In this document: positions 31,794 to 36,871 of the stretch, piece after piece
How the letters are laid out: the number at the start of each line of letters is the position of its first letter
How positions within the stretch are numbered: the stretch's first letter is position 1
DNA from: Candidatus Uhrbacteria bacterium RIFOXYB12_FULL_58_10
Lineage (GTDB): Bacteria > Patescibacteriota > Patescibacteriia > UBA9934 > GWF2-40-263
Direction of reading: 5' to 3'
DNA length: 64,000 nucleotides
Assembly (NCBI GenBank): GCA_943354165.1
Contig: CALRBH010000001.1
Coordinates: forward strand, 16,828 to 80,827
Notes under the pieces: model-generated
Seen by the model: the letters and a program-made list of their open reading frames with translations, nothing else
Database searches by the model: none
What the model was told of the DNA's origin: nothing
Made by a program: the position numbers and the translations under genes

Positions 31794-32063
31794 TTATTCG
31801 TAGACGTCCTTTCTGTGTCCGATGTGCAGGATGGAAAGAATGGAAATTTTGCCGTCGGTTTGCCGTTTAAAAATAGCACGATATGAGCCGATGCGGAAAC
31901 GAAAAAAGCCGCGGAGCGGTCCTGTAAGTGGTTTGGCAGATGACATTGGATTCTCGTGTTTTTCGTAATCAGTCAATGTTTCGACGATTCGTTCTGCGAT
32001 AGATGCGTCTAGGCTATCGAGGTCTTTCTGAGCACGTCTCGCTAATTCTATTACGAATCGCAT
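31794..32063 (-). CDS. type II toxin RelE/ParE family
   Basis: 89 aa; GxxxxRFRIGSYRAIF……ILHIGHRKDVY signature. Confidence 0.8.
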   Translation of the reverse strand: MRFVIELARRAQKDLDSLDASIAERIVETLTDYEKHENPMSSAKPLTGPLRGFFRFRIGSYRAIFKRQTDGKISILSILHIGHRKDVYE

Positions 32064-32065
32064 AG

Positions 32066-32317
32066 TTACTTCGTGCTGTATCGCTTGCGTGCTTGTGCAA
32101 GAGAAATAGTACGACCAGCTTTCGCATCGGCAGCACCCTCCTTAACGGCCGCAACAGTGCGAGCGAGAGCACTGACCTTCTTTGCGATATGACGGACTTC
32201 AAACACGGGCTGGTCGTTCTCAACTACGACAAGCCGTTGGTTCTTTTTATAGGCCTCGCGGGAAAGTGAGGTCATGTGCTGCTTAAATTGCGTGAGGCCG
32301 ACGGTGCGGATGGTCAT
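32066..32317 (-). CDS. Phd/YefM-family antitoxin
   Basis: Start taken at MTIRTVGLTQFKQH…VVVENDQPVFEV; 2-nt gap to the toxin. Confidence 0.65.
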   Translation of the reverse strand: MTIRTVGLTQFKQHMTSLSREAYKKNQRLVVVENDQPVFEVRHIAKKVSALARTVAAVKEGAADAKAGRTISLAQARKRYSTK

Positions 32318-32542
32318 AGAAAGGTTATTGATTGGATGATAGCGATGTTTCACCTTGAAGACAAATCGGCAAGGGGATTTTATGAGCCTCAATACAGCAT
32401 AATTTGTGTCGAGGATCATTGACAAAACGTCAAAATTGTGCTAATATTCGCCCACGAATAATCGTTCATGATTGTTCGAAACGGTGAGCCTGGGGTTCTG
32501 ACATTTTGTCAGGATGACGGGTGAACCAAGCAGGAGAAGAAC

Positions 32543-33343
32543 ATGGCCAAGAAAAACTTGTCCGAGATCGAGCGCGGCGCCGGATTCTTTGAAGGATTCG
32601 TCACCAACCTCATGGCCGTCGTCCGGGAACAAAACGTCCCGTTCGAGGCACTCTATCGCCTCGTGAAGCCCGAGGGGCGCGAGACGCTGAAGGAAATGGT
32701 GTATGTGGCTCAGAAGGCATTTCAGCCTCTGAGTGCTGTGCCTCAAGCACAGCAAGACTACTTCACCCAAGTCCTCGACGCCGACGTCCCCGAGTCGCAC
32801 AAGGCGACCGTGGCCAAGTACCGCAAGCTCGCCAGTGAGCACGGCGTGCCCACGACGACCGTAGTATGTTACCGCGTCCGTGCCGGCTTCACCCTGAAGT
32901 CGCACGCCGCCAAGGCCGGCCCTTGCATCCAAGGTTTCCAGTACTTGCAAAACTGGAACTTCCCGGACGAGCCGACCGTCGACTGCCTGGTCTTCTGGGT
33001 GCCCTGCATCCTGAAGGACAGCAAGAACAAAACCAAAGACGAGCAGACTGCGCTGCTCGCTGATACGCGCACCAAGCTGGAGTTGCCCGCTCATCACATG
33101 AGTAGCTTCGGCAAGGTCGCTCTCGTGGCCGGTCTTATCCTTGCCCATTACAAGGCAACGAAAGGTGAGCACATCCCACTCGGCAACGACTGGGTGCGCA
33201 CCGACACCTGCAGCGCGGACGGCGATCGCCTCCGCCTCGGCGACTTCGGTGGTGCTGGCCTCGACTGCGGCGACGACCGCTGGGGCGACGGTCGGCGCGC
33301 CCGCCTCGGCGCCTTCGCCTTGGGGGTGGAACTCGGATCCTAG
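32543..33343 (+). CDS. DGR target (variable) protein; C-terminal variable region
   Basis: 266 aa; last ~40 aa encoded by VR; no signal peptide seen. Confidence 0.7.
   Translation: MAKKNLSEIERGAGFFEGFVTNLMAVVREQNVPFEALYRLVKPEGRETLKEMVYVAQKAFQPLSAVPQAQQDYFTQVLDADVPESHKATVAKYRKLASEHGVPTTTVVCYRVRAGFTLKSHAAKAGPCIQGFQYLQNWNFPDEPTVDCLVFWVPCILKDSKNKTKDEQTALLADTRTKLELPAHHMSSFGKVALVAGLILAHYKATKGEHIPLGNDWVRTDTCSADGDRLRLGDFGGAGLDCGDDRWGDGRRARLGAFALGVELGS
33207..33322 (+). repeat. DGR variable repeat (VR)
   Basis: Aligns to TR over ~116 nt; 18 of 19 mismatches are at TR adenines. Confidence 0.8.
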
Positions 33344-33681
33344 GATCCTTGGCCCTCGTCAAATGGTCTTTGGACCCTTGAACCCTCGGTCACTCGGCCT
33401 CTTGACCCCCGGACAATTTATTGTCCGGGGGTCATCTAATTTCAACATGTTATACTTGCCGTTGGCTGCGTCGTTGTTGCTCGTGTCTACGGATCCGAGC
33501 CGGCAGTACAGGGTATCGTGCAATCAGAATAACGCCGGAGATTTTCTTGCGTTAGCGTATTCCACGATATTGGGATTTCCATTCCCCACCCCGTGTCAGA
33601 CACTCGTGCGTATATTGCGCAGCATAAAATTCAACCCGGAGTGTATACGACGGGTGGTGATTCGGATGGTGTCTGGCGCAT

Positions 33682-33797
33682 CCTGCAACGCGGACGGCAA
33701 TCGCCTCAACCTCGGCGACTTCGATGATGCTGGCCTCAACTGCGACGACGACAACTGGAACGACGATCGCAACGACCACATCGGCGCCTTCGCCTTG
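33682..33797 (+). repeat. DGR template repeat (TR), A-rich (many AAC codons)
   Basis: Non-coding copy of VR containing 26 adenines, of which 18 are substituted in VR. Confidence 0.8.
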
Positions 33798-33826
33798 ATG
33801 ATGGGGAAGGAAACGAGAAAGACATC

Positions 33827-34141
33827 TCAAACACTGAGGTGTCTTTCGTTTAGGCTCTGCAACCATCTGCCGAGCATACGTCCGATCGTCCCGAGCTTAT
33901 CTGTTACCTGTGCGTATTTTCCAGTGTCTAATCCCTTCGCTTCCCAGAGGAGTGTTGTAAAAAATTTGAGCTGGTCTAACTTTCGGCTAAGTGTTTCCAG
34001 AAAGATTCGCTTGTCCTCTCGCTTGGTATACTGCGCAGTAAGCGCAAGTTCCAAAATATCCGTGAAGATATTGTCGACCTTGGCTCCAATCGTATACCGC
34101 GTGAGTCTTGGGAGATGGATCAAGAAATTATGCCACAACAA
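33827..34141 (-). CDS. Avd-like four-helix-bundle accessory protein (opposite strand)
   Basis: 104 aa helical; C-terminal pattern L..LLWEAKGLD.GKY…LGTIGRMLGRWLQSL resembles the four-helix-bundle (Avd / 23S IVS protein) family. Confidence 0.5.
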   Translation of the reverse strand: MLWHNFLIHLPRLTRYTIGAKVDNIFTDILELALTAQYTKREDKRIFLETLSRKLDQLKFFTTLLWEAKGLDTGKYAQVTDKLGTIGRMLGRWLQSLNERHLSV

Positions 34142-34151
34142 ATAAGCCTGT

Positions 34152-35207
34152 TTGAGTTCGGAGACGATGGAAAGTTCAGAATTCCGTTGGGGGGGGGTCG
34201 CTTATAGGGCGGTTCGTAGCAAGTTGACTCATAAGTTTGAGGAGATTATTTCGATGGAAAATCTATGCCTGGCCTGGGAGGAATTTATTCGTGATAAAAG
34301 AGGCAAAAAAGATGTACAGGATTTCGCTCACAATCTTTCCGATGAGATTTTCAAGCTTCACGAAGATCTTTTGATGGGTGTTTATCTGCACGGGCCGTAC
34401 AAACATTTCCGGATCAATGATCCCAAGCCACGTGATATTCATAAGGCTCTGGTCCGTGATCGTTTGCTGCATCATGCCATCCATCGCCAATTATACCCGT
34501 TCTATGCACGCGTGTTTATCGCAGACTCGTTCTCCTGCCAGTCGGGAAAGGGTTTACATCGCGCGATTAACCGTTTTCGGAACATGGGGCAGAAAGAGAG
34601 TCTTAATCAGACAAGGACTTGTTGGGTTCTCAAATGCGACATTCGAAAGTATTTCGCAAGCGTAGACCACGCGACACTTCTCGCCATCCTGAAAGATCGT
34701 ATCGATGATACGCGTATAACTGGACTTCTTCAGTCGATCATCTCGAGTTTTGAATCGGCTCCAGGGAAGGGAATCCCGCTCGGCAATCTCACAAGCCAGC
34801 TCTTCGCAAACATCTACCTCCATGAGTTCGATGTATTCGTAAAGCATCGGTTGAAGGTGAAGTGGTTCGTAAGGTACGCCGATGATTTTCTCCTGCTGTC
34901 TCATGATCGCGACGCGTTGGTTCAGCTGCTTCCCCTGATGAGCCAGTTTCTTTTAGATCGACTGGCGCTGGTGATACATCCTCATAAAATCGTCCTACAG
35001 ACTCTTGCTTCCGGGGCGGACTTTCTCGGATGGATTCAATTTCCGCACCAGAGAGTTCTCCGAACAAAAACGAAACAACGGATGTTTAGTCGGGTTAAAA
35101 ATCATCCCACGCAAGAAACACTCAAGTCTTATTTAGGCCTGCTGAGCCATGGGAATGGATTTTGTTTACAGACACAGATCATTAATGAGCATTGGCTGCG
35201 TTCCTGA
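34152..35207 (+). CDS. DGR reverse transcriptase
   Basis: YADDFLL catalytic motif; IPLGNLTSQ (I/LGxxxSQ) motif typical of DGR RTs; ENLCLAWEEF N-terminal motif (start may be 34254). Confidence 0.85.
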   Translation: MSSETMESSEFRWGGVAYRAVRSKLTHKFEEIISMENLCLAWEEFIRDKRGKKDVQDFAHNLSDEIFKLHEDLLMGVYLHGPYKHFRINDPKPRDIHKALVRDRLLHHAIHRQLYPFYARVFIADSFSCQSGKGLHRAINRFRNMGQKESLNQTRTCWVLKCDIRKYFASVDHATLLAILKDRIDDTRITGLLQSIISSFESAPGKGIPLGNLTSQLFANIYLHEFDVFVKHRLKVKWFVRYADDFLLLSHDRDALVQLLPLMSQFLLDRLALVIHPHKIVLQTLASGADFLGWIQFPHQRVLRTKTKQRMFSRVKNHPTQETLKSYLGLLSHGNGFCLQTQIINEHWLRS

Positions 35208-36288: not shown

Positions 36289-36322
36289 GGGGTTGGAAGG
36301 GCTGTAAGGGTTGTAAGGGCGG

Positions 36323-36871
36323 TTAGGGCTGTAAGGGCGGTAAGGGGTTGTTGATGGAGATGCGATCTGCGGCGGCTTTGATCAGGGAAGGAAGCTTTGC
36401 TTCTTCCTCTGTGGACCACTTGCCGAGCACCCAGGTGTCGAGTTGGATTTGGACCTCGTGTGGGCGGCCGATACCGACGCGCAGGCGGGGGACGAGAGTT
36501 CCTTCGGGGAAGATCTGGAGAATCGATTTCATCCCGTTGTGGCCGCCGCTTCCGTTTCCTGTCTGGCGCATTTCGCCGAGCGGGAGATCCGCGTCATCGA
36601 AGACGACGAGAAGATCCTGCGGTTCGATGGAATACTTTTTCATGGCGAGCTTCACGGCTTCGCCGGAAAGGTTCATGAACGTGTTCGGCTTGAGGAGAAT
36701 TGCGCGCGCACTATTCAGGGTGATTTCTGCCACATCGCCCTTGAGATTCTCTGAAGGGCGGAACTTGGCCCGTGTCCGGTTCGCGAGCTCATCGAGCACA
36801 AGGAATCCGACGTTATGCCTCGTGCGAGCATACTCTTGTCCAGGATTGCCGAGGCCAATGATGAGGCGCAT
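36323..36871 (-). CDS. pth: peptidyl-tRNA hydrolase
   Basis: MRLIIGLGNPGQEYARTRHNVGF N-terminus. Confidence 0.9.
   Translation of the reverse strand: MRLIIGLGNPGQEYARTRHNVGFLVLDELANRTRAKFRPSENLKGDVAEITLNSARAILLKPNTFMNLSGEAVKLAMKKYSIEPQDLLVVFDDADLPLGEMRQTGNGSGGHNGMKSILQIFPEGTLVPRLRVGIGRPHEVQIQLDTWVLGKWSTEEEAKLPSLIKAAADRISINNPLPPLQP

Follow-up and report, generated by a model that had tools for sequence, protein, structure and literature searches.

The region at 32543–35207 of the window (the whole 64-kb stretch of DNA that was analysed) is very probably a chromosomal diversity-generating retroelement (DGR) of the Patescibacteria/CPR type, in which a target gene ending in the variable repeat (VR) is followed by the template repeat (TR), an avd gene on the opposite strand, and a reverse transcriptase (RT) gene (Table 1). 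The element is a further CPR DGR of ordinary type, belonging to an already known class, and taken by itself it has modest value, i.e. one more CPR DGR and one more family of motif-less lectin-fold targets. Features found across its clade outweigh the element itself in importance; these are a structured RNA 5' of TR, a G/C run in avd, and an array of 8-nt repeats behind VR, for none of which a description was found in Rfam or the searchable literature. On their basis, we put forward a tentative proposal, which we rate as falling just short of probable. Specifically, mutagenic retrohoming in this clade of Patescibacteria DGRs would be gated by a hypermutable C6–17 or (TC)n repeat in the avd leader, either through stochastic on/off switching or with Avd made only via polymerase slippage, and the DGR RNA would be reversed relative to the Bordetella phage paradigm, with a ~230-nt structured domain ahead of TR and a long-range helix enclosing TR, and with 8-nt repeats instead of a cruciform on the VR side. 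The comparison set consists of ~160 relatives, and subsets of these were used per analysis (143, 137, 136, 115 unique, 89 unique, and 58 loci).

Table 1. Features of the element, in window coordinates.
Feature	Position	Strand	Details
Target (variable protein) gene	32543–33343	+	266 aa
VR (variable repeat)	33207–33329	+	Ungapped alignment with TR
Array of degenerate 8-nt repeats	33332–33402	+	CCTTGGNN / CTTTGANN; between target stop codon and terminator
Intrinsic terminator hairpin of target gene (palindrome 2)	33403–33434	+	Arms 33403–33417 / 33420–33434
Extended -10 promoter-like box	33448–33456	+	TGTTATACT; proposed driver of TR-containing RNA
5' leader hairpins of DGR RNA	33479–33554	+	RNAalifold on alignment A3; PA 33479–33488 with 33491–33500; PB 33530–33540 with 33545–33554
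P0 5' strand	33576–33588	+	TTTCCATTCCCCA; partner 33802–33813
Core structured RNA element, directly 5' of TR	33593–33679	+	Covariation; P1 33593–33604 with 33668–33679; P2 33608–33611 with 33617–33620; P3 33634–33638 with 33651–33655
TR (template repeat)	33682–33804	+	Ungapped alignment with VR
P0 3' strand	33802–33813	+	TGGGGAAGGAAA; overlaps end of TR/VR homology
Hairpin then CGTTT	33817–33847		Spans avd stop codon (33827–33829)
avd	33827–34201	-	Annotated body 33827–34141, TTG start; PF22296, NF033474
avd leader ORF	34176–34232	-	MSQLATNRPISDPPPTEF, ending in a stop; from ATG to the C9 run and through it
G9/C9 homopolymer	34189–34197		Simple-sequence repeat in avd leader; 26 nt upstream of likely RT start
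Reverse transcriptase (RT)	34224–35207	+	RVT_1 E 1.5e-19; likely start TTG 34224

Gene order and reverse transcriptase

The order target, TR, avd (opposite strand), and RT is present in 143 of 143 related loci. The initial annotation had placed an Avd-like gene between TR and RT on the opposite strand, where we also find it (ORF 33827–34141, minus strand), and had called this orientation unusual. The latter does not hold, as the arrangement is architecture B3, TR-(avd)-RT, which accounts for 90% of CPR DGRs in the searched text of Wu et al. (2018; PMC5758913). Compared with the B3 DGRs of CPR/DPANN in that text, gene order and strands are the same, there is likewise one adjacent target and a CPR host, and the cassette itself shows no difference. 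The target also lacks a recognizable sequence motif, like most of the CPR targets covered there. The same searched text (PMC5758913) mentions neither the RNA domain 5' of TR, nor the repeat in avd, nor the array of 8-nt repeats behind VR.

The RT translation carries IPLGNLTSQ and YADDFLL, the motifs that had been cited as being of DGR type. The TTG at 34224 has its counterpart in the called RT start of relative L164, and alternative starts are found at 34152, 34167, and 34254; the 5' end of the gene overlaps the avd leader ORF head-to-head by 9 nt. Among PDB sequences, the best match of the RT is 8ub7_A (a 328-aa "Reverse transcriptase"; E = 4.7e-36), with group II RTs at 2e-15. From its length and entry series, we take 8ub7 to be the Bordetella phage RT. 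The best NCBIfam match is a group II intron RT/maturase model, at 124.7 bits and thus far under its cut-off of 300. DGRs of CPR/DPANN are reportedly also treated by Paul and coworkers in 2017. One further ORF of the region, at 33141–34145 on the plus strand (a 260-aa gene in the Logan assembly), was rejected as an annotation artefact because it is made of spacer, TR, and the antisense of avd.

The avd gene and its G/C run

The Avd ORF matches the profiles bAvd (PF22296, E = 9e-8) and DivGenRetAVD (NF033474, E = 1.9e-15) from profile position 18 to the end, both under the curated cut-offs, and Avd-homologous ORFs lie in the same place in 143 loci. A phmmer search of PDB sequences with the frame-corrected Avd returned no Avd structure. 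Frame 0 is open up to 34201 and encodes a conserved first helix (SELSIVSELKQAY...), which lacks its own start codon. Upstream, the single ATG is at 34232 on the minus strand; it is the reverse complement of a His codon of the RT, and the slippage-prone C9 run sits between this ATG and the helix, in the 5' part of avd. At C9, the leader is off by 1 nt relative to the Avd body, and C8 or C11 would bring it in frame; in L164, whose run is C11, the leader also misses the frame, which C12 or C9 would restore. The initial annotation had described the DGR as "complete", a term to be qualified in view of an Avd whose first helix depends on an upstream ATG that is out of frame. G9 is found in both assemblies of the window's genome.

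Of 143 loci, 137 have a repeat at this position, either a C-run of 6–17 nt (mode 9–10) or (TC)n. Run length is the sole difference across 1.9–6.9 kb in the pairs L008/L088, L009/L089, L026/L102, L034/L107, and L073/L161. Overall, ~10 of 24 near-identical pairs of relatives differ in run length, part of which could be accounted for by sequencing or assembly error. Reading from the leader ATG leads into the frame of the Avd body at 45 loci and misses it at 91. A non-coding repeat would likewise be expected to leave about one third of the loci in frame.

We consider it fairly probable that Avd is translated from the ATG upstream of the C9 run, and that run length decides whether the full four-helix protein is made. 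C9 is out of frame and, therefore, the genome would be in an "off" phase or dependent on polymerase slippage in the run, which we hold to be reasonably likely. Transcriptional slippage and phase switching of avd are equally possible as mechanisms.

In contingency loci, phase variation goes with a homopolymeric or dinucleotide tract near the 5' end of the coding sequence, e.g. the poly-G/C tracts of Neisseria and Bordetella. The avd genes resemble them, in that the 5' part of an ORF contains a homopolymer of 6–17 nt or a (TC)n, otherwise identical assemblies of relatives have tracts of different length, and the sampled genomes are spread over all three frames. They differ from contingency loci in that the gene encodes an accessory factor of a mutagenesis machine rather than a surface antigen, the host belongs to the CPR, and switching is here a proposal. 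If true, phase variation or slippage dependence of Avd would offer a simple explanation of how DGR activity is restrained, sparing useful variants from overwriting.

An alternative is that the G/C run has a regulatory or structural role outside any coding sequence (e.g. as a spacer in the promoter region from which avd and RT diverge, or within the 5' UTR of RT), with length differences that reflect sequencing or assembly noise and an Avd start located downstream. We regard this as unlikely. Such an element would suit the near-random frame split, the error-prone nature of homopolymers, and the position of the run 12–30 nt upstream of the RT start in relatives, but it is at odds with the 41–65 nt that separate the run from the aligned Avd body; this stretch encodes a conserved helix, among 115 unique loci the Avd frame is open through it in 114, versus 37 and 44 for the other frames, and the SELSI codons of the window and L164 differ synonymously only. 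A possible start codon after the run is indeed available in 100 of 137 loci (some ATG, GTG, or TTG between repeat and aligned Avd body), yet the sole one in the window is a TTG inside helix 1. Random frames would also not lead one to expect the ATG in frame in all 6 of the 6 loci that lack the repeat (P = 0.0014). Also against it, L047 and L140, which differ by one G in the run, have a second 1-nt indel 20 nt away that restores the frame, and a subclade has another slippage-prone repeat, (GA)n, at the same place.

Adenine-specific differences between TR and VR

TR and VR align without gaps at an offset of 475, with a core of 116 nt (VR 33207–33322 vs. TR 33682–33797) and homology that extends past the core to 33329/33804, i.e. 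123 nt in total. The core contains 19 mismatches, which read from TR to VR are 13 A>G, 5 A>C, and 1 C>G. The initial annotation had claimed adenine-specific differences and had suggested tabulating substitutions per base from a computed alignment; both its claim and its counts are borne out, as 18 of the 19 mismatches sit at TR adenines, 8 adenines are unchanged in VR, and the remaining mismatch (C>G at TR 33770) is a synonymous CGC>CGG change. With an adenine share of 22.4% in TR, the concentration of at least 18 of 19 mismatches at A has a binomial P of 3.05e-11. The substitution spectrum is skewed, with all 18 adenine changes being to G or C and none to T. VR makes up the last 46 codons of the target, and the 26 TR adenines fall at codon position 1 (8) or 2 (18) of the VR frame and never at position 3; 6 codons of TR are AAC in this frame. 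A second VR was not found within the 64-kb window.

Past diversification of VR in the window is evident from the 18 A-specific differences, and ongoing adenine diversification can be demonstrated from sequence in relatives only. For example, the near-identical assemblies L047 and L140 have identical TRs and VRs with 17 differences, 16 of them at TR adenines, while in L036 and L121, also near-identical and with identical TRs, 21 of 21 VR differences are at TR adenines. A metagenome scan with the RT yielded near-identical partners for other loci and no close relative of the window's RT (identity ≤63%).

It is improbable that the locus is a decaying or inactive remnant, with Avd as a frameshifted pseudogene and VR as the fossil of past diversification. 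A leader ATG in the wrong frame for the Avd body, an Avd-frame stop codon immediately before the C-run, and one TR/VR difference away from an adenine would all be compatible with decay. However, two thirds of 136 related loci are out of frame too, yet have intact Avd bodies, RTs, and TRs; relatives are demonstrably diversifying; and the frameshift falls exactly in the conserved hypermutable repeat. Decay is also hard to reconcile with an intact RT ORF, a TR in which 26 of 26 adenines are at codon positions 1 or 2, and a VR that is in frame and without a stop codon.

Lastly, the notion that TR and VR arose by ordinary partial gene duplication beside an unrelated retroelement RT (group II intron or retron), for which the best NCBIfam match of the RT could be invoked, is effectively refuted by the mismatch pattern (P = 3e-11), by a best solved RT relative (8ub7) 20 orders of magnitude above group II RTs, by an Rfam search that shows no intron or retron RNA, by the presence of Avd, and by ~100 related loci with A-biased TR/VR pairs of the same kind.

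A structured RNA around TR

Covariation among relatives demonstrates a ~230-nt RNA domain 5' of TR, made of the hairpins PA and PB and the core helices P1–P3, with weaker support for the additional helix P0. Compensatory changes are found in 21 of 23 pairs of P1–P3 and in 15 of 18 pairs of PA and PB (RNAalifold, alignment A3). For P1–P3, 95.5% of the cells are paired; sliding the partners lowers this to 30–49%, and none of 500 shuffles attains 95.5%. The 3' strand of P1 lies right next to the first base of TR. A covariance model of the core (R1) returns one match per locus, including one in the window at 33593–33681. An Rfam cmscan of 33000–34400 with E up to 10, which took in the RT-1 to RT-19 motifs of Weinberg et al. 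(2017), produced two chance matches only, both on the terminator hairpin; among these motifs, RT-10 is the spacer motif of BPP-1 (Rfam; Weinberg et al. 2017). The covariance model marks the TRs of the clade, and the covarying domain is a defined RNA with which a CPR DGR could be reconstituted biochemically.

The P0 strands have a duplex energy of -20.6 kcal/mol (RNAduplex), and the helix is present in the centroid fold. In relatives, P0 uses other sequences (AAATGAAGA with TCTTCATTT; AACAGC with GCTGTT), and across the clade its support is modest, with cognate pairs having a mean of -8.5 kcal/mol versus -6.4 for non-cognate pairs.

Two conserved motifs flank this RNA. Upstream, a TGnTAnnnT box (TATAAT match of at least 5/6) is present in 32 of 58 loci, mostly 138–158 nt upstream of P1, versus only 9.5% of random 260-nt windows with such a box anywhere; a sigma-70 two-hexamer scan of 33300–34400 found no promoter. 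Just 3' of TR, a hairpin and T-run are conserved in relatives (consensus TTTCTCTCC...GGGAGAGTTTTGTTT), and the hairpin of the window is present in the centroid fold. This hairpin is likely the terminator of both the TR RNA and avd, and it is also a candidate Avd-binding stem-loop. Stem-loops just 3' of TR are present in 207 of 278 DGRs according to Handa et al. (2024; bioRxiv 10.1101/2023.10.23.563531).

The region behind VR

Within VR, a GC-rich 18-nt stretch (TCGGCGCCTTCGCCTTG) is invariant with respect to TR and is followed by GGGGTGG in VR and ATGATGG in TR, the extended homology ending as TTGGGGGTGG and TTGATGATGG, respectively. From position and TR/VR divergence only, we infer that the last ~24 nt of VR (33306–33329) are a candidate IMH.

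Two palindromes after VR had been suggested to act as an IMH hairpin in the initial annotation. Both are present, but neither is a conserved IMH hairpin. The first (GGATCCTAGGATCC, 33334–33347, 14 nt) lies inside the 8-nt array and is missing from relatives. The second is the terminator of the target gene, with arms of 15 nt each, 74 nt 3' of VR, and relatives have a hairpin and T-run 60–80 nt after VR. At the sequence level, the conserved feature behind VR is the 8-nt repeat array and not the palindromes. Across 89 unique loci, the first 70 nt 3' of VR are 10- to 15-fold enriched in the 8-nt motif, whose copies are most often spaced 8 nt apart. Tandem Repeats Finder reported nothing on 33300–33460 because the array is too degenerate. 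A conserved GC-rich inverted repeat just 3' of the candidate IMH was not found here; such a repeat is not obligatory for DGR membership, being present in only 34% of DGRs in the searched text of Wu et al. (PMC5758913). The array is a candidate target-site determinant, and as such would bear on the retargeting of DGRs for engineering.

The target protein

The N-terminal ~70 aa of the target are helical and poorly conserved, and the remainder forms a conserved core. The C-terminal 140 residues are predicted to adopt the C-type-lectin/FGE-like fold of DGR variable proteins, in agreement with the fold that the initial annotation had suggested looking for. Searches with Pfam and NCBIfam profiles gave 0 matches to the target, including none to FGE-sulfatase or DUF1566. 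The absence of an obvious signal peptide, also remarked on earlier, is supported by the lack of any hydrophobic stretch (maximum Kyte-Doolittle 19-aa mean of 1.24), and no lipoprotein or secretion signal was found in the protein. The target is probably soluble and cytoplasmic, without signal peptide or membrane helix. Its identity to TvpA of Treponema denticola and other DGR variable proteins with an FGE/C-type-lectin fold (PDB 2y3c, 1yu0, and 5vf4) is 8–13%. In contrast to TvpA-type variable proteins, the target has no Pfam FGE-sulfatase/DUF1566 match and no lipoprotein/secretion signal, and its family is confined to Patescibacteria.

Proposed mechanism and comparison with the Bordetella phage DGR

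Judging by the conserved motifs, a separate TR transcript would start at ~33465, ~10 nt after the TGTTATACT box, and end at the hairpin 33817–33847. This RNA of ~390 nt would fold into a 5' domain of PA, PB, and the P1–P3 core, and P0 would join the stretch before P1 to the stretch after TR. By analogy with known DGRs, RT and Avd would bind the RNA and copy TR to cDNA, misincorporating opposite adenines, and P1 and P0 are placed such that they may define where copying stops and starts, as flanking RNA does in the DGR of the Bordetella phage. The cDNA would then replace VR, and up to 26 adenine positions could be recoded in the C-terminal lectin-fold surface of the target.

The DGR of Bordetella phage BPP-1 (mtd-avd-TR-brt) shares with this element adenine-specific TR-to-VR transfer, an RT and Avd, and a target of C-type-lectin fold (here predicted) with VR at its C-terminus. 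Handa and coworkers are said to describe the BPP-1 spacer as ~140 nt long, located 3' of TR, and carrying the priming site. Here, by comparison, structured RNA spans ~230 nt 5' of TR and only ~50 nt 3' of it, and no GC-rich cruciform follows the candidate IMH. By analogy, the flanking-RNA logic of the Bordetella phage could be built with the accessory RNA on the opposite side of the template. The 2 systems also differ in that avd is here on the other strand and the host is a cell, not a phage.

A diversity-generating retroelement of a known CPR class

The initial annotation correctly identified and named a diversity-generating retroelement (DGR), which is an ordinary member of a known CPR class, while two features flagged there as unusual are not unusual in that class. 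A computed alignment of TR and VR with a constant shift of 475 nt returns the same placement and counts, i.e. 19 differences, of which 18 are at TR adenines and one is a synonymous CGC/CGG change. Specifically, TR/VR mismatches are 13 A>G, 5 A>C, and 1 C>G (CGC>CGG), with 8 TR adenines unchanged, and the requisite concentration at A is highly significant (at least 18 of 19 mismatches; P = 3e-11, given a TR with 22% A). Read in the target frame, each of the 26 TR adenines occupies codon position 1 or 2, and AAC codons number 6. The TR/VR similarity extends to 33329/33804, where the end reads TTGGGGGTGG in VR and TTGATGATGG in TR, plausibly the difference between IMH and IMH*, the candidate sites at the 3' ends of VR and TR. 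An adenine-masked search finds no second VR in the 64-kb window. The adenine substitutions in the window VR include none to T (13 to G, 5 to C; P ~7e-4 if three outcomes are equiprobable), a skew that may reflect selection or chance; unlike in this VR, A>T does occur in relatives.

The RT ORF carries the DGR-type motifs IPLGNLTSQ and YADDFLL, as first annotated, and matches RVT_1. Among solved structures, the RT is closest to the 328-aa RT of 8ub7-8ube (E = 4.7e-36), with group II intron RTs reaching only 2e-15. For the Avd ORF, the bAvd and NCBIfam DGR-Avd models each give a match that is below the curated cut-off and starts at profile position 18. The target protein (266 aa) has no match in a family search, and neither a signal peptide, in line with the earlier description, nor a membrane helix was found. 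Among its 73 homologs, all named ones are from Patescibacteria (e.g. Magasanikbacteria and Uhrbacteria); the core is conserved, and the C-terminus is hypervariable, coinciding with VR. A 334-aa open frame at 33141-34145 (+), made of spacer, TR, and antisense avd, is almost certainly an annotation artefact; the Logan assembly annotates a 260-aa gene in it (L001 6564-7346).

Positions of features of the retroelement in the window
Feature	Position	Strand	Description
VR	33207-33322		3' end of target gene
8-nt repeat array	33332-33402		units CCTTGGNN / CTTTGANN
Extended -10 box	33448-33456		TGTTATACT; ~146 nt from P1, distance conserved in 32/58 loci
P0	33576-33588 with 33802-33813		13 nt before P1 with 12 nt right after TR; -20.6 kcal/mol
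P1	33593-33604 with 33668-33679		57-locus alignment
P2	33608-33611 with 33617-33620		57-locus alignment
P3	33634-33638 with 33651-33655		57-locus alignment
TR	33682-33797		
Avd ORF	33827-34141	minus	
G9 run	34189-34197		between avd body and RT
avd leader ATG	34232	minus	reads MSQLATNRPISDPPPTEF*; leader ORF 34176-34232

Architecture and activity among relatives

Related loci were collected with the RT as query, 80 each from species-representative genomes and metagenomes, and the titled genome records among them are all Patescibacteria, a few evidently mislabelled MAGs aside. An A-biased TR/VR pair lies upstream on the RT strand in ~100 loci. The opposite-strand avd, initially described as an unusual orientation, is directly upstream of the RT in all 143 loci with an Avd match, and the order TR, opposite-strand avd, RT is named architecture B3, "TR-(avd)-RT", by Wu et al. 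2018 (PMC5758913). Because these loci all share it and it is published as B3, this orientation is the rule for the lineage.

Two pairs of near-identical assemblies have identical TRs and differ in VR, at 17 positions with 16 at TR adenines (L047 and L140), and at 21 positions, all at TR adenines (L036 and L121). Such adenine-biased differences beside identical TRs indicate, from sequence comparison, that the DGR clade is active in nature. The genome and metagenome collections scanned hold no close relative of the window, and the window element itself demonstrates past diversification only.

The neighbours of the cassette are a ParE-type toxin, its likely antitoxin, and topA to one side and dprA, pth, and der to the other, which places it in the chromosome; no phage genes were found around it. 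The G+C content is 47% over avd and RT (34001-35000) vs 54-58% in neighbouring kilobases, which is consistent with, and suggests, horizontal acquisition.

Structured RNA 5' of TR

The last ~100 nt before TR are found in many relatives using nhmmer, and an alignment of 57 loci yields a three-helix core (P1-P3) in which 21 of 23 pairs show compensatory changes. In this core, 95.5% of cells are paired vs 30-49% with partners slid, and none of 500 shuffles is as high. The P1 3' strand ends 0-13 nt before TR/VR homology starts. Each locus has one match to a covariance model, R1, in every case upstream of the RT and in its orientation, and the 64-kb window has a single match; no Rfam family matches the TR-flanking RNA.

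Further upstream, hairpins PA and PB also covary (15/18 pairs with compensatory changes), and relatives form helix P0 at the same site from different sequences. The centroid fold of 33570-33858 recovers P0, P1, P2, P3, and a 3' hairpin; clade-wide, a hairpin and T-run follow the P0 3' strand across the avd stop codon. A structured RNA gene in the VR-TR spacer is well supported, and the extended -10 box, helices, and post-TR hairpin lead us to predict a TR RNA of ~390 nt (33465-33855) with accessory structure 5' of TR. The Bordetella phage DGR is similar in that its template must be flanked by structured RNA, with an upstream/downstream duplex and a stem-loop after TR; such elements occur in many DGRs, for which only 40 nt upstream of TR were examined (Handa et al., 10.1101/2023.10.23.563531). 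Together with the 8-nt array and the avd run described below, this 5' RNA is a class-wide feature that emerges from the comparison, and these features are where its value lies.

A repeat array behind VR

Two palindromes behind VR had been proposed as an IMH hairpin, a reading that comparison does not bear out: the one at 33334-33347 has no counterpart in relatives, and the one at 33403-33434 is terminator-like, with a similar hairpin and T-run 60-80 nt 3' of VR in relatives. Between the target stop codon and this terminator, every relative has degenerate 8-nt units. In the 70 nt after VR of 89 unique loci, the 5-mers CTTTG, CTTGG, CCTTG, and CCCTT are enriched 10- to 15-fold, and the array motif averages 3.65 occurrences per 70 nt vs 0.72 in random windows, with a main spacing of 8 nt. 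The array is common to different target families and, since it accompanies VR but not TR, is a candidate target-side recognition element, with support that is descriptive only.

A G/C run in the avd leader

At the site of the window's run, most related loci have 6-17 consecutive Gs (mode 9-10); (GA)n of 13-35 nt replaces it in 21 loci (a subclade), and the repeat is absent in 6. Across 600 kb of loci, this avd-leader run accounts for nearly all G/C runs of at least 7 nt. The run could be non-coding. Over the 41-65 nt between run and aligned Avd body, the Avd frame is open in 114 of 115 unique loci (other frames, 37 and 44), and a conserved helix of type LPVLQKxxxxYK is encoded there; judged from sequence, the stretch is translated. 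Downstream of the run, the window offers a single start codon, a TTG within this helix; in the Avd frame a stop codon precedes the run, and the sole upstream avd ATG is a conserved RT His codon read on the opposite strand.

At C9 (the run as read on the avd strand), the window leader misses the Avd frame by one nucleotide; a run of C8 or C11 would yield a 134- or 135-aa Avd. With its C11 run, the leader of L164, a locus with the same target family and anatomy, misses the frame as well. Among 136 loci with both repeat and upstream ATG, the leader ATG is in frame with Avd in 45 and out of frame in 91 (one further repeat-bearing locus lacks the ATG), while it is in frame in all 6 loci without the repeat.

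Run length differs in ~10 of 24 near-identical pairs, and in five it is the only difference across 1.9-6.9 kb: L008/L088 (9 vs 10), L009/L089 (11, in frame, vs 9, out), L026/L102 (9 vs 10), L034/L107 (11 vs 10), and L073/L161 (10, out of frame, vs 11, in). Part of these differences could be sequencing noise. In L047 vs L140, a nearby second 1-nt indel restores the frame after a one-G difference. A slippage-prone run would switch Avd, a protein needed by the RT, at the DNA or RNA level, and such a switch is moderately supported by these sequence comparisons. Within an incomplete coverage of the literature, we found no link between DGRs and such a repeat.

Additional observations

RT and avd leader overlap head-to-head at 34224-34232. 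The two start codons of relatives lie around a CAATTG palindrome (ATG..CAATTG..CAT), and each is the reverse complement of a His codon in the other gene; the usual RT ATG is absent in the window and L164, where the RT seemingly starts at TTG. An alternative longer RT ORF in the window would run from ATG 34167, in frame through the G9 run.

L025 (4124-4228) and L113, otherwise 99.9% identical, have 35 mixed-type differences within 105 nt close to the RT gene's 5' end, outside VR, which may be a recombination patch. At L162 3501-6664, a target homolog precedes two uncharacterised ORFs, rpmH, rnpA, and an Avd-like gene on the same strand (PF05635), with no R1 match in this stretch; the order recalls CPR DGRs whose components are separated by ribosomal protein genes, noted by Wu et al. 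(PMC5758913).

Directly upstream of the DGR target is the ParE-family toxin gene (31794-32425, minus; PF05016, E = 1e-10), and the small ORF upstream of it is the likely antitoxin. Between the dprA start and the pth end, at 36289-36346, a 9-nt periodic repeat (AGGGCTGTA-like) recurs in five overlapping copies.
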